From Clostridia bacterium (GTDB taxonomy: Bacteria; Bacillota; Clostridia; TANB77; RGIG9151), in NCBI GenBank assembly GCA_017934955.1, contig JAGBIO010000011.1, positions 1 through 32,000 of the forward strand: a stretch of DNA of 32,000 bases, written 5' to 3'. The notes below the pieces were generated by a model. It worked only from the letters and a program-made list of their open reading frames with translations. It made no database searches and was not told where the DNA came from. Below, piece after piece: positions 6,900 through 32,000 of this stretch. A program made the translations under genes and the position numbers. Numbering within the stretch: position 1 is the stretch's first letter; every line of letters starts with the position of its first letter.

Positions 6900-7081
6900 G
6901 GACACAATAAATTGTGTCCGTACAGGTAGGTAGAGGTATGATTCAAAGGTGGACAGCATGAATGCTGTCCGTACGGATACTATTGAATGAAAAGGTAGAA
7001 ATGTGATTGAATGCTGTCCGTACGGATACTATTGAATGAAAAGGTAGAAATGTGATTGTAGGGACGGCATTTATGCTGTCC
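6900..7081. repeat. REP-like palindrome cluster (relA-dtd gap)
   Basis: Type B GGACACAATAAATTGTGTCC at 6900-6919 (followed by GTAC). Type A GGACAGCATGAATGCTGTCC at 6951-6970 (followed by GTAC). A perfect 49-bp tandem duplication at 6961-7009 / 7010-7058 re-copies the right half of the palindrome. A degenerate type A, GTAG+GGACGGCATTTATGCTGTCC, is at 7058-7081. Confidence 0.95.
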
Positions 7082-12653: not shown

Positions 12654-12823
12654 AGAATACAGATTAGATTTAATTTTTTTGCAATGATGACACAAACGTT
12701 GTAGGGACAGCATTCATGCTGTCCACAGAAAAAGGCAGAAAAGCAGGACAGCATAAATGCTGTCCCTACAATAGACTGAGAAACATTTAAGGTACATATA
12801 TAAGGTTAAGTCTGACCAGCTAC
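12654..12823. mobile_element. MITE-like composite element, copy A
   Basis: It has a degenerate left end ACAGATTAGATTTAAT (12659-12674), the A-A doublet, and then the conserved right arm CCCTACAATAGACTGAGAAACATTTAAGGTACATATATAAGGTTAAGTCTGACC (to about 12817). Confidence 0.55.
12701..12769. repeat. REPIN-like inverted doublet of type A palindromes
   Basis: The sequence is GTAGGGACAGCATTCATGCTGTCC-ACAGAAAAAGGCAGAAAAGCA-GGACAGCATAAATGCTGTCCCTAC. The two 24-nt arms are reverse complements of each other except for one loop base. Confidence 0.95.
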
Positions 12824-15590: not shown

Positions 15591-16931
15591 ATGCCGTCAA
15601 ATGAGTCGATTATGCGTGTTTTGCCGAATGATGTTGAGGCGGAACAGGCTGTGCTTTGCTGTATGTTAATCGATAAAGATGCTGTGACATCCGCTATTGA
15701 AATTTTAAAGGCGGATGATTTTTATCGGGAGGATAATAAGGAAATTTTTTCTGCGATTACGGATTTGTTTGAGCGTTCCGCACCGATTGATTTGGTGAGT
15801 TTGAATGAGCAATTGCGCTTGCGTGGAACGTTAGACGCTGTTGGCGGAATTGAATATATTGCGGATCTTTCTTTGAAAGTGGCAACTTCTGCGAATATTG
15901 AGTACTATGCGAAATTGGTGGAGGAAAAGTCAATTTTGCGAAAATTGATTCGTTCTTCTACCGATATTGTGAATATGGGTTATACCGCGGCGGAAGATGT
16001 GCAGACGATTGTAGATACCGCTGAGAAAAAGATTTTTGATATTGTGCAAAAGCGGAATGTGAAGGGGTTTACGCCGATTAAAAATATTTTAATCAGTAAT
16101 TTTGAGAAATTGGAAGAATTATATAATCAAAAAGGATTTTTAACGGGAATTTCATATGGATTTAAGGATTTGGATATGAAAACGGCAGGACTTCATAATT
16201 CGGATTTGGTACTGATTGCGGCCAGACCGGCGATGGGAAAATCGGCGTTTGGTTTAAATATCGCTCAGCATGCGGCGGTACATAGCAAAATTCCGGTGGC
16301 TATTTTCAGCTTGGAGATGTCGAAGGAACAGATTGTAAACAGAATGCTTTGCTGTGAAGCGATGATTGATGCGAATAAGATGCGTACCGGGAAATTAGAG
16401 GAAGACGATTGGGGGAAAGTGGCGGAGGCGATGAGTACCTTGTCCGATGCACCGATTTATATTGACGATAATCCCGGTCAAACGGTAATGGATATTCGTG
16501 CGAAATGCAGAAGATTAAAGTTAGAAAAGGGTTTAGGCTTGATCGTGATTGACTATTTACAGTTGATGCAGGGACCTTCAAGGCGGAACGGTGAGAATCG
16601 TCAGCAGGAAGTTTCAGATATTAGTAGAGCGTTAAAGATTATGGCAAAAGAGTTAGATGTTCCGGTTATTACTTTGTCTCAGTTGAGCCGTGCTCCGGAT
16701 GCAAGACCGGATCATCGTCCGGTATTAAGTGATTTAAGAGAGTCCGGTGCTATCGAGCAGGACGCGGATATTGTTATGTTTTTGTATCGAGACGATTATT
16801 ATAATCCGGAAACGGAGAAGAAAAACATTTCGGAAGTTATTTTGGCAAAACACAGAGGTGGTTCTACCGGTACGGTTGAACTGGTATGGCTTGGTCAATA
16901 TACAAAGTTCGCCAATAAGTTTAATGGGTAA
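15591..16931 (+). CDS. dnaB: replicative DNA helicase (DnaB family; DnaC in Bacillus nomenclature)
   Basis: PNDVEAEQAVLCCML N-terminus, Walker A ARPAMGKSAF, IVIDYLQLM, SQLSRAPD, and DADIVMFLYRDDYY. Confidence 0.9.
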   Translation: MPSNESIMRVLPNDVEAEQAVLCCMLIDKDAVTSAIEILKADDFYREDNKEIFSAITDLFERSAPIDLVSLNEQLRLRGTLDAVGGIEYIADLSLKVATSANIEYYAKLVEEKSILRKLIRSSTDIVNMGYTAAEDVQTIVDTAEKKIFDIVQKRNVKGFTPIKNILISNFEKLEELYNQKGFLTGISYGFKDLDMKTAGLHNSDLVLIAARPAMGKSAFGLNIAQHAAVHSKIPVAIFSLEMSKEQIVNRMLCCEAMIDANKMRTGKLEEDDWGKVAEAMSTLSDAPIYIDDNPGQTVMDIRAKCRRLKLEKGLGLIVIDYLQLMQGPSRRNGENRQQEVSDISRALKIMAKELDVPVITLSQLSRAPDARPDHRPVLSDLRESGAIEQDADIVMFLYRDDYYNPETEKKNISEVILAKHRGGSTGTVELVWLGQYTKFANKFNG

Positions 16932-16934
16932 AAA

Positions 16935-16960
16935 AAGTGTTTTGCGTAGGCAAAACACTT
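16935..16960 (-). terminator. terminator hairpin at the end of X1 (T-tract on the minus strand only)
   Basis: An 11-bp stem AAGTGTTTTGC / GCAAAACACTT with loop GTAG. The A-run at 16930-16934 gives a U-tract only for minus-strand transcripts. On the + strand it sits 4 nt after the dnaB stop but lacks a U-tract. Confidence 0.55.
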
Positions 16961-17067
16961 GCGCCGAACGCGAGTTGCGCAGCAAAATTCCTTTCGCGTG
17001 AGTGTGCTTCCCCACGGAGCGTTTTTTATTGTATAGGCAAAATCTTTGATTTTTCCTATACAATAAA
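16935..17067 (-). repeat. X-family repeat, copy X1 (about 130 nt, minus-strand sense, ends in terminator hairpin)
   Basis: The reverse complement reads TTTATTGTATAGG-loop-CCTATACAATAAAAAACGCTCCGTGGGGAAGCACACTCACGCGAAAGGAATTTTGCTGCGCAACTCGCGTTCGGCGCAAGTGTTTTGCCTACGCAAAACACTTTTTTT. It aligns by eye along its length with 19621-19731. Confidence 0.7.
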
Positions 17068-17437: not shown

Positions 17438-17467
17438 TGTTTTACCTCCTTTGGTGGTTTAACGTCT

Positions 17468-17482
17468 TGTAACAGTGTTACA
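17468..17482. promoter_or_regulatory. 15-bp palindrome TGTAAC-AGT-GTTACA in the 5' UTR of the 113-aa gene (operator-like)
   Basis: A perfect 6-3-6 inverted repeat between the predicted -10 box and the RBS. The half-site resembles the CTGTAAC motif at the outer ends of the composite elements. Confidence 0.35.
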
Positions 17483-17503
17483 GAATAAAATAGATTTTCC
17501 CAT

Positions 17504-17532: not shown

Positions 17533-17679
17533 CTATGACTAAATTAGAACAAAAGTGGATAGCATGAATGCTGTCCGAAGAATAGGCAGATAGTAGAAAT
17601 AGGACACAATAAATTGTGTCCCTACAATAGATTAAGAAACATTCGAGGTACAGGTGTAAATTTAAGTCTGAACTGTAAC
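17528..17679. mobile_element. MITE-like composite element, copy B
   Basis: The left end is GTAAACTATGACTAAATTAG (17528-17547). Two hairpins follow. The right arm CCCTACAATAGATTAAGAAACATTCGAGGTACAGGTGTAAATTTAAGTCTGAACTGTAAC closely matches copy A. Confidence 0.55.
17557..17625. repeat. REP-like palindromes (orf113-tilS gap)
   Basis: A degenerate type A, GGATAGCATGAATGCTGTCC, is at 17557-17576. Type B GGACACAATAAATTGTGTCC is at 17602-17621, followed by CTAC. A half-palindrome remnant, GAATGCTGCCCGTA, lies near 17684-17697. Confidence 0.9.
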
Positions 17680-19620: not shown

Positions 19621-19731
19621 TAACAGAAGTTGCGTTAAAAATGCTTCGACGGAAGTATACTCATGTGTTAGGAAAGTTGTTGCGCAACTTGCGTTCAGTG
19701 CAGGTGTTTTGCCTGCACAAAACACTTTTTT
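19621..19731 (+). repeat. X-family repeat, copy X2 (hpt-ftsH gap)
   Basis: The sequence is ...GTTAAAAATGCTTCGACGGAAGTATACTCATGTGTTAGGAAAGTTGTTGCGCAACTTGCGTTCAGTGCAGGTGTTTTGCCTGCACAAAACACTTTTTT. Blocks shared with X1 are TAAAAAYGCTYCG, GGAAGYAYACTCA, TGCGCAACTYGCGTTC and GTGTTTTGCC..CAAAACACTTTTTT. Confidence 0.7.
19704..19731 (+). terminator. terminator hairpin at the end of X2, immediately upstream of the ftsH RBS
   Basis: GTGTTTTG (19704-19711) pairs with CAAAACAC (19718-19725) around a 6-nt loop, followed by TTTTTT (19726-19731). An alternative pairing, GTGCAGG (19698-19704) / CCTGCAC (19712-19718), is mutually exclusive with it. Confidence 0.55.
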
Positions 19732-22886: not shown

Positions 22887-23144
22887 GTTACAGGTTAGAC
22901 TCAAATTTATAAAGAAGGCACAATCCTGTAGGGACAGCATTTATGCTGTCCACAGAAAAGGCAGAAAGGCAGGACAGCATAAATGCTGTCCCTACAAATA
23001 ACTTTCCACTGATACCGTAGGGACACAATTTATTGTGTCCTAATTCTAATAGCAGGCTATTTCGTGGACACAATAGATTGTGTCCCTACAAAGGAATACA
23101 GGACATTTCGTACATATAGAAAATTATTAAGTCTGAGCCCTAAC
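22887..23144. mobile_element. Non-coding composite element with terminal inverted repeats (MITE-like), copy E1
   Basis: The left end is GTTACAGGTTAGACTCAAATTTATAAA (22887-22913). The right end is TATAGAAAATTATTAAGTCTGAGCCCTAAC (23115-23144), which is related to it in inverted orientation. A 52-nt internal block (23017-23068) matches E2 29600-29651 at 50 of 52 positions. Confidence 0.65.
22928..23089. repeat. Two REPIN-like doublets (A-A and B-B) in the yqeY-infC gap
   Basis: A-A doublet at 22928-22995 (hairpins 22932-22951 and 22972-22991, flanked by GTAG and CTAC). B-B doublet at 23017-23089 (hairpins 23021-23040 and 23066-23085, flanked by GTAG and CTAC), with spacer TAATTCTAATAGCAGGCTATTTCGT. 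Confidence 0.95.
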
Positions 23145-24663: not shown

Positions 24664-24741
24664 TATAATAGGAAATGTCATTTCCTATTATATAAAAACG
24701 CTCCGCAAGGAAGCACACTCGCACGTGCAGAATGGGTATGT
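24658..24741 (+). repeat. X-family repeat, 5' portion only (copy X3), preceded by a 41-nt perfect palindrome and abutted by a type A hairpin
   Basis: TATAAAAACGCTCCGCAAGGAAGCACACTCGCACGTG matches the first blocks of X1. The palindrome TTTTTATATAATAGGAAATG-T-CATTTCCTATTATATAAAAA spans 24658-24698. Homology is lost before the REP-like hairpin at 24742. Confidence 0.6.
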
Positions 24742-28800: not shown

Positions 28801-29523
28801 ATGAATATGGCAAGGAGATTTATAGTAGAGGGAAATCCGGAGGGAAGGTTTACGATAGCGGAGAAAGAGGCGCGACATATTTTTGTTTTACGTCATAAGG
28901 TTGGAGATGTGATTCAGGTAAATAATAAACTGTGTGAAATTATTGCAATGCAAAAAGATGAGGTTATTTGCGATGTTGTCGGAGAGGCGGAAATAAGAGG
29001 TGTTCCGGATACAAAAATCACTTTATTTCAAGCACTTTTGAAAGCGGATAAAATGGAGTTTGTGATTCAAAAAGCAGTTGAATTGGGAGTAACTTCAGTT
29101 GTCCCTTTTGTCAGTAAAAACGTGGTGGTGAAATTAGAGGGTAAGGATAAAGCGAAGAAATCAGAACGTTGGAATAAAATTAGCGTGGAGGCGTCGAAAC
29201 AGTGCGGTCGAAGCGATATTGTTCCGGTTTCGGAAATTTTGAGTTTTGAGGAAATGCTAACGACGTTTCAGGAGTATGATTTGGTGTTGTTTGCTTATGA
29301 GAATGAGAAAGAATCGTTAAAGGAAGTATTGCAGGGTCGGGGAAAGGGAAAGAGAATTGCTGTTGTGATTGGTGCAGAAGGTGGATTTGATGCTACTGAG
29401 GCAGAGCGTGTGATGAAAGCAGGAGAGAATGTAAAGTCGGTGAGTTTGGGTGACCGAATTTTACGTGCTGAGACAGCGAGTTTGTTTTTGTTGTCGGTGT
29501 TGATGTATGAGTGTGAGGAGTAG
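28801..29523 (+). CDS. rsmE: 16S rRNA (uracil1498-N3)-methyltransferase RsmE
   Basis: ARRFIVEG N-terminus, QALLKADKMEFVIQKAVELGV, IGAEGGF, and LGDRILRAETA. ATG 28807 is an equally good start. Confidence 0.8.
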   Translation: MNMARRFIVEGNPEGRFTIAEKEARHIFVLRHKVGDVIQVNNKLCEIIAMQKDEVICDVVGEAEIRGVPDTKITLFQALLKADKMEFVIQKAVELGVTSVVPFVSKNVVVKLEGKDKAKKSERWNKISVEASKQCGRSDIVPVSEILSFEEMLTTFQEYDLVLFAYENEKESLKEVLQGRGKGKRIAVVIGAEGGFDATEAERVMKAGENVKSVSLGDRILRAETASLFLLSVLMYECEE

Positions 29524-29539: not shown

Positions 29540-29769
29540 GTTTATTCATACTTAAATTTATAAAAATGGTTGTACAAACCGCTTTCTGCTGTTATTTTTG
29601 TAGGGACACAATTCATTGTGTCCTAATTCTAATAGCAGGCTATTCCGTGGAAAGTCATTTGTAGGGACAGCATTCATGCTGTCCTACATTCCGCATTTTC
29701 TGTGGACAGCATAAATGCTGTCCCTACAGTGTTTATACCATTTTTATAGCTTTAAGCCTGACTTGTAAC
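29540..29769. mobile_element. Non-coding composite element with terminal inverted repeats (MITE-like), copy E2
   Basis: The 25-nt ends at 29546-29570 (TCATACTTAAATTTATAAAAATGGT) and 29737-29761 (ACCATTTTTATAGCTTTAAGCCTGA) are reverse complements at 21 of 25 positions. The interior consists only of three REP-like hairpins plus spacers. There is no ORF. Confidence 0.7.
29600..29727. repeat. REP-like palindromes (rsmE-PilZ gap)
   Basis: Type B at 29604-29623 (GTAG+). An A-A doublet at 29661-29727 (hairpins 29665-29684 and 29704-29723). Its spacer is the reverse complement of the spacer used at 12725-12745 and 22952-22971. Confidence 0.95.
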
Positions 29770-29797
29770 GACCCTCATGCGAAATCGCTTGCTTAGG

Positions 29798-29826
29798 TTG
29801 ACAATAAAAGGGAATATCGGTATAAT
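29798..29826 (+). promoter_or_regulatory. consensus sigma-A promoter for the PilZ-queA unit
   Basis: TTGACA (29798-29803), exactly 17 nt, then TATAAT (29821-29826). It lies just outside the right end of element E2. Confidence 0.7.
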
Positions 29827-31535: not shown

Positions 31536-31614
31536 AGAAAGAATAAAGAAAAAAAATGGAAGTTTTTCGGCAAGCCGAAAAACAACAAAAAATTAGAAAA
31601 AGAGCACAAACACT

Positions 31615-32000
<386 letters not shown>

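Follow-up and report, generated by a model that had tools for sequence, protein, structure and literature searches.

A compound cluster of GTAG-tagged REP hairpins with inverted, GTTAC-ended leaders in the rsmE-pilZ spacer of an uncultured Clostridia bacterium

A 230-bp non-coding unit (29540-29769) lies in a 32-kb chromosomal segment of an uncultured Clostridia bacterium, hereafter the window, and we regard it, with moderate confidence, as a compound cluster within a lineage-specific family of REPs of the REPIN/BIME type, probably mobilised in trans by an HUH enzyme of the RAYT type. The unit is assembled from REP hairpins and inverted leaders, belongs to a family, ends sharply, bears no target duplications and is absent from sister lineages. 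On present evidence it elaborates a known repeat class and does not represent a new type of mobile element.

The lineage comes from the ruminant gut, and the RsmE protein encoded in the window is identical to NCBI MBP3284377.1. The unit is situated between rsmE, whose stop codon is at 29523, and a gene for a PilZ-domain protein. Assemblies of the same strain match the window at 100% identity and lengthen the sequence to 47 kb, with L102 adding to its left and L001 to its right. All real genes of the window are carried by the + strand, and the GC skew is ~0.37 across it. We also note that the skew is 0.3-0.5 throughout the window and all sister lineages (L095-L101, L133-L141), with nearly all genes on one strand, which amounts to an unusually extreme strand asymmetry.

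The two arms of the unit, TCATACTTAAATTTATAAAAATGGT (29546-29570) and ACCATTTTTATAGCTTTAAGCCTGA (29737-29761), are complementary at 21 of 25 positions and are separated by 166 nt. This pairing, first pointed out in the initial annotation, is borne out by the complementarity count and by resampling: none of 1000 first-order Markov resamples of the 315-nt spacer reached 21/25, the maximum being 20. The 12-mer ACCATTTTTATA occurs in the window only in these two arms. The left arm is part of a 60-nt left leader (29540-29599, + strand), delimited by the alignment of 11 leaders and by the inverted repeat. It opens with the end box GTTTA--TTCATACTTAAATTTATAAAAATGG, in which 2 nt are deleted, and the copy as a whole is hybrid or degenerate. 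A B-type REP, composed of a GTAG tag and the 20-nt palindrome GGACACAATTCATTGTGTCC, occupies 29600-29623 (+) and is followed by the spacer of a B-B doublet (TAATTCTAATAGCAGGCTATTCC; 29624-29646, +), which was recognised by comparison with the unit at 22887-23144. The partner B- REP, present in the latter unit, is missing here, and the junction lies at GTGGA. Next comes the short GTAG-side flank of the A doublet, GTGGAAAGTCATTT (29647-29660, +), the reverse-complement homologue of 22996-23009; the segments 22966-23012 and 29644-29690 are 89% complementary. The A-A REP doublet (29661-29727) has its tags outward in the manner of REPINs and consists of A+ (29661-29684), a 19-nt spacer (29685-29703) and A- (29704-29727). 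Its 25-nt inverted repeat is 96% complementary, and the doublet folds into a single long hairpin of 25 bp. The right leader, of S type and 42 nt long (29728-29769, - strand; reverse complement GTTACAAGTCAGGCTTAAAGCTATAAAAATGGTATAAACACT), includes the right arm. Outside the unit, native sequence (29770-29826, +) comprises a 28-nt promoter-upstream spacer and then the promoter of the PilZ-domain gene, a consensus TTGACA-17-TATAAT at 29798-29826 that is kept in the relatives L095/L096, which are without the unit.

The interior had been described beforehand as one B hairpin and one A-A doublet without coding capacity, and both points agree with these coordinates and with the scan for reading frames, in which no ORF longer than 45 aa was found inside the unit. 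The outer limits proposed there, 29540 and 29769, fall exactly on the GTTAC boundary that is common to the family and is described below. Folded as DNA, the unit gives -47.4 kcal/mol (z = -9.0), and its arms pair with each other to enclose the B hairpin and the long hairpin of the A-A doublet; folded as RNA, it gives -88.8 kcal/mol (z = -10.2). A search of Rfam at gathering and permissive thresholds returned no family in the unit, the matches being an L20 leader elsewhere and spurious miRNA hairpins. A role as intrinsic terminator was rejected, because the hairpins have no T-run after them.

The hairpins belong to a family of 29 REP copies, each a 20-nt palindrome, in 13 intergenic spacers of the 32-kb window, or ~1 per kb. 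The REPs are strongly over-represented and extragenic, the motif GTAGGGACAGC having 23 matches against 2.46 expected. Two types are distinguished, type A (GTAG-GGACAGCATnnATGCTGTCC) and type B (GTAG-GGACACAATnnATTGTGTCC), which differ by a compensatory change in the middle of the stem, GC..GC versus CA..TG. Each REP carries GTAG on one side, and an asymmetric loop fixes its orientation. The palindromes fit the definition of GTAG-tagged REPs as a class (PMC3733652), and the doublets match the GTAG-outward arrangement of REPINs (PMC3116915). All + copies are tagged GTAG, while the - copies read CTAC (5) or GTAC (9) on the + strand. The - REPs inside operons (6900, 6951, 7554, 10346, 14925, 15451, 15497, 21605, 24742) read GTCC-GTAC on the + strand, so that their tag is GTAC in place of GTAG, and all five - REPs of leader-bearing units (12746, 17602, 22972, 23066, 29704) retain CTAC. 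The C-to-G change of the in-operon tags runs in the same direction as the extreme G>C skew of the + strand.

The hairpin class is widespread, as a scan of metagenomes recovered the same 24-nt core in contigs of GC 0.28 to 0.62 with further compensatory stem variants, CC..GG and GA..TC. The core GTAGGGACAnnATTYATnnTGTCC is unchanged across the metagenome loci L051-L094, always with compensatory stem variants. In one group of them (L051, L052, L059, L064, L068, L070, L081) the core occurs as doublets within the group's own inverted arms of ~25 nt, and in an unrelated metagenomic organism a doublet of the B-type core is nested in that organism's own arms of ~25 nt, CAAGTTTCTaAaGTAGtAatAGT. The ORFs near the REPs in metagenome locus L073 encode ribosomal proteins, and a scan of viral contigs gave no match to the REP. 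A scan for the REP head together with TTAAGYCTGA in a genome collection that lacks this species returned 47 loci, which are chance matches and unrelated repeats of Oscillatoriales. The Oscillatoriales repeat (Microcoleus, Tychonema) consists of GTAG-type REP pairs bounded by inverted arms of the GGTGTCAACTTAAGCCTGA type; it was seen at L005-L007, L013, L017, L019, L021-L026, L029, L032, L034, L038, L041, L046, L048 and L050, with four tandem copies at 251-nt spacing in L006.

An alignment that took in every cluster edge of the 47 kb yielded 11 leader copies, each of which flanks an outward-facing REP on its GTAG side. In all 11 the homology starts abruptly at GTTAC, and the sequence beyond is unrelated. 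The outer 25 nt have the consensus GTTACAGGTYAGACTYAAATTTATA. Measured from the end to GTAG, the leaders fall into an S class of 41-42 nt (~45 in one degenerate copy) and an L class of 54-55 nt; the 60-nt hybrid left leader of 29540-29769 lies outside both. Both leaders of this unit share the subtype ATAAAAATGG, which is also present in a third copy at L001 16682, and among the four units bounded by leaders at both ends it is the only one with two leaders of one subtype. The + strand carries the motif TTAAGYCTGA at 12806, 17662, 23127 and 29752; an inverted copy with one mismatch lies at 29546. In the 47 kb no leader was found without an adjacent REP at a fixed distance, and 17 of the 29 window REPs are without an end box. 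The fixed distance from arm to GTAG makes leader plus REP the conserved half-unit, with the REP as its likely recognition module. Because GTAG-outward REPs put the leaders outermost, inverted leaders look like terminal inverted repeats. A search with an nhmmer model of the end box gave no further copies in the 47 kb, the relatives or the metagenome loci, and the corresponding scan of viral contigs gave 28 chance matches, none of them with REPs. At 17462-17485 the sequence CTTGTAAC-AGT-GTTACAG resembles two back-to-back end boxes (palindrome GTAACAnTGTTAC); it is located in a divergent promoter region upstream of tilS and may represent decayed leaders or an operator.

Three other doubly bounded units were found in the 47 kb. 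They are a 168-nt unit at 12656-12823 (degenerate S leader, A+, A-, L leader), a 258-nt unit at 22887-23144 (S leader, A+, A-, B+, B-, L leader) and, to the right of the window, L001 19040-19149, a deletion derivative with A- only, in which the first A REP is gone between AAGG repeats. The statement that related ends bound four other units in the window was slightly generous, since only the two just named are doubly ended there: the cluster at 17541-17679, with an A-like and a B- REP, has an L leader with its end box at the right edge alone, and the A-A doublet at 31589-31686 (+), which is 82% complementary to 29656-29753 over 98 nt, has a degenerate leader. Single-ended leader copies end at 17679 and at L001 15219 and 16682, and three further copies in all are found within 7.5 kb beyond the right edge of the window. 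The view of the hairpins as enclosed in a larger unit with inverted termini stands in so far as the hairpins are indeed enclosed, the termini recur at other cluster edges and the boundary is sharp. The four doubly bounded units have four different interiors, namely A+A-, A+A-B+B-, B+A+A- and A- only, and in three of the four the leader classes differ between the two ends. A target-site duplication, which had been proposed as a check, was sought at the four complete units; none was present, and the flanks share nothing.

The longest shared segment is an S leader plus A-A doublet, which exists in four copies (12658-12771, 22887-23012, the reverse complement of 29644-29769, and 31589-31686) with 82-85% identity over 98-127 nt; 29644-29769 and the reverse complement of 22887-23012 share 84% identity. 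This level of identity gives no sign of recent movement. The left piece of the unit matches elsewhere: 29600-29651 is 96% identical to 23017-23068, the first half of a B-B doublet, and at GTGGA (29647) the homology switches into the short flank of the A doublet. The switch in segment matches indicates that the 230-bp unit is a mosaic of two oppositely oriented half-units. No second copy of the whole unit was found in the 47 kb, and BLASTN of the unit against plasmid and phage collections gave no match. Elsewhere in the window, the REP cluster at 6959-7056 contains a perfect 49-nt tandem duplication, of which the copy at 7008-7056 is absent from L102 and present in L103 and the window. The difference may be a genuine polymorphism or the result of an assembly collapse; if genuine, it would indicate remodelling by recombination.

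Four orthologous spacers were compared with those of sister lineages, whose flanking genes have ~82-90% nucleotide identity to the window. Between the rsmE stop codon and the -35 box of pilZ, the window has 274 nt including the unit, and L095/L096 have 64 nt with no REP and the same promoter. In the yqeY-infC spacer, where the window has the 258-nt unit, L135 has one A REP, the stop codon of L141 abuts the -35 box, and L137/L097 have an unrelated REP-free spacer; in L135 the homology picks up again precisely where the 22887-23144 unit ends in GTAAC. The rplT-mazG spacer holds one REP in the window, an A and a B REP in L141 and none in L135, and the ftsH-acpS spacer holds two B REPs in the window, one A-like REP in L135 and none in L139. 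Among these lineages REPs thus come and go site by site. A and B REPs occur at other sites in L135 and L141, where they are without end boxes; the REP family is common to the window lineage and at least two sister lineages, and units bounded by end boxes were seen only in the window's lineage among those compared. The lack of the unit from the orthologous rsmE-pilZ and yqeY-infC spacers supports the earlier notion of a larger bounded unit, but neither comparison furnished a clean empty site. Global alignment of the rsmE-pilZ spacer with that of L096 gave no clean insertion junctions, the 64-nt spacer of the relative being too diverged; the sequence ATAGGCAGATTGTGTC in it could be a relic half-REP or chance. 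No insertion or excision polymorphism of the whole unit was seen among the same-strain contigs, which are all identical. In the sister lineage L133/L134, yqeY is followed by a sipL-flagellar hook region that is ~22 kb away in the window, and the rearrangement breakpoint relative to the window (22882 and window position 1) falls at the REP-bearing yqeY-infC spacer.

In four units the right-hand GTAAC end precedes a perfect TTGACA-17-TAnnnT promoter, by 28, 29, 28 and 29 nt, the respective positions of end and -35 box being 12823/12852, 23144/23174, 29769/29798 and L001 19149/19179. Four of the five right-hand ends are 28-29 nt from a perfect -35 box. The 47 kb contain five perfect intergenic promoters of this type, and these are four of them. 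That relatives without the unit retain the promoters identifies them as native. The single REP of L135 has its end 30 nt from the orthologous -35 box of the yqeY-infC spacer, and in L141 nothing lies upstream of that box. The spacing may reflect selection against disturbance upstream of promoters, a target preference or recruitment as an upstream module. A stronger version, in which REPIN-like leader units have a promoter-proximal placement as such, either by insertion ~64 nt upstream of the start of a strong sigma-A promoter or by host recruitment of the leader (TTAAGTCTGA...GTAAC) as a phased module, would explain the position of these four ends; we consider it rather improbable. That the promoter is a part of the element was also considered and rejected, as relatives without the unit keep the promoter and the left-hand leaders have none.

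How the unit might have arisen can be outlined from its segment matches. The left piece can be read as a truncated B-B doublet with its leader, and the right piece as a reverse-oriented S leader plus A-A doublet, the two being joined at the short microhomology GTGGA. Half-units would spread in the form of hairpins of single-stranded DNA. A RAYT-type HUH (Y1) transposase, present in single copy and recognising the GTAG-tagged hairpin, would cut and rejoin them in trans. The clusters may then be remodelled as repeats recombine with one another and as tandem duplications and deletions arise between them. Transcription of rsmE probably runs into the unit once it is in place, and the 3' end of the transcript would then carry a very stable structure. 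Group 1 RAYTs have been reported in Clostridia (PMC5581495). Pfam annotation and a motif scan detected no RAYT gene (Y1_Tnp, PF01797) in the 47 kb of this genome, and a scan for HUH/Y1 transposase motifs over the ORFs of all loci examined detected none. One feature speaks against a REPIN reading, in that the REP sequences do not form the ends of the unit and homology reaches 41-60 nt outside each REP.

Several other explanations compete with the REPIN/BIME-like cluster. That the inverted repeat is a product of chance in AT-rich spacer DNA is effectively refuted, since, beside the resampling result, the arms align with nine other leaders having the same boundary; in its favour are the AT richness of the arms and the restriction of their 12-mer to these two places in the window. 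A true MITE, of the kind implied when the palindromes were initially taken for cargo, would be a non-autonomous derivative of a DDE-transposase IS, with the GTTAC... TIRs as the recognised ends and the REPs as passengers or later insertions. Such an element is consistent with the inverted, sharp and conserved termini that lie on either side of four units, 106-258 bp in size and with no coding capacity. It could further draw on the sister lineages, whose plain REPs are without end boxes, as are 17/29 REPs of the window; this occurrence of bare REPs indicates that the end-box layer is separable from the REP layer. We nevertheless judge a MITE origin to be improbable and do not retain the cargo interpretation. 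Target-site duplications are present at 0/4 units, and the copies have no common whole-element sequence, given four interiors, mixed leader classes in 3/4 and a 230-bp unit that is unique. The leader is always tied to a REP at a fixed distance, and single-ended copies exist. Neither a transposase gene nor a longer element with these ends (GTTACAGGTCAGAC...), such as an autonomous IS, occurs in the 47 kb, and the plasmid and phage collections are without a match. The GTAG hairpins, outward doublets, lack of target duplication, single-ended copies, free combination of half-units and gain and loss among relatives thus fit a REPIN/BIME-like cluster better than a DDE-type MITE.

The unit might instead not be mobile as such but be an intergenic module maintained by the host, serving as a transcript-end stabiliser, an insulator or a site for a nucleoid protein or regulator upstream of promoters, and arising and spreading locally through duplication, recombination and gene conversion, as higher-order BIME mosaics do. 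The regular promoter spacing described above (4/5 in 47 kb) is in keeping with this proposal, as are the way in which units take up the gap that runs from a stop codon or terminator to a promoter, the 49-nt difference in tandem copy number as a possible case of remodelling by recombination, and the co-variation of A and B stems, which implies that the hairpin itself is under selection. Sister lineages, however, keep the promoters without units, the L141 stop codon abutting the -35 box; left-hand leaders face coding ends and not promoters, and dispersal to many unlinked spacers needs a transposition-like step. We therefore regard a purely host-maintained module as unlikely, and the trans-mobilised REP cluster remains the reading that we adopt.

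The resemblance to REPINs with their RAYTs (Bertels and Rainey 2011, PMC3116915) is considerable: both consist of extragenic GTAG-tagged inverted doublets that form one long hairpin, singlets are likely remnants, higher-order clusters occur, no target duplication is expected and presence varies among related genomes. In contrast to REPINs, which have an invariant REP at the ends of the unit, a leader of 41-60 nt lies outside the REP here and ends in GTTAC. Two REP types per unit, an uncultured Clostridia MAG in place of a proteobacterium, and a density of ~1 REP per kb further set the present family apart from those described there (PMC3116915). The BIMEs of E. coli likewise combine several REP types, alternating in orientation, with conserved motifs that are not REPs, and BIMEs and the present units alike are found between co-directional genes or at operon ends. 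Conserved extra-REP motifs are part of classical BIMEs, and binding of IHF or gyrase to BIMEs of Escherichia coli is known. The extra-REP motif of the present family differs from these in being a long outer arm that gives inverted termini. By inspection, the window palindromes appear unrelated to the E. coli REP consensus.

REP dimers nested in long palindromes have been reported for GTAG-15 of Anabaena variabilis and CGTC-1 of Halothiobacillus neapolitanus (PMC3733652, section 7), and the initial statement that the architecture is outside the classical REP/BIME description was accordingly half right. As here, GTAG-15/CGTC-1 are GTAG-outward dimers in inverted tracts of 20-27 nt, and the tracts never occur without REPs (Di Nocera et al. 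2013, PMC3733652). They are mentioned there in passing, without analysis (PMC3733652), and differ from the present units, which have at least two arm length classes, a mosaic make-up and ends placed regularly relative to promoters. Bacterial MITEs (RUP, Correia/NEMIS, ERIC, Nezha, bcr1) share a size of 100-260 bp, TIRs, a non-coding and intergenic nature and structured transcripts; unlike them, the present units have no target-site duplication, no whole-element sequence and no cognate IS in 47 kb, and their terminal repeats are tied to a REP hairpin. IS200/IS605-derived PATEs have subterminal hairpins inside the element ends, no target duplication and a fit to HUH single-strand chemistry in common with the units. 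In PATEs the left and right ends differ and one strand is active; they are thus asymmetric, whereas the present units are symmetric.

To our knowledge, work on REPs and REPINs has dealt almost exclusively with Proteobacteria and cyanobacteria. The window offers a very dense two-type GTAG-REP family in which the conserved unit reaches past the hairpin to sharp GTTAC ends. Should a RAYT be found, these ends would bear on the position of the cut site relative to the hairpin and on the assembly of REP mosaics. The promoter spacing, if it is not a by-product of selection, would be novel as a mode of target choice or of recruitment by the host. A second, unrelated repeat family of ~95 nt with internal hairpins (AAAAAAGTGTTTTGCGTAGGCAAAACAC...GAGTGTGCTTCC..CGGAGCGTTTTT) is also present, with copies at 16931-17026 (+), 19651-19731 (-) and 24694-24725 (-) in the window and at 1496-1584 in L135. 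The L135 copy is at a different site, the rpsU-yqeY spacer, which suggests that this family may also be mobile.
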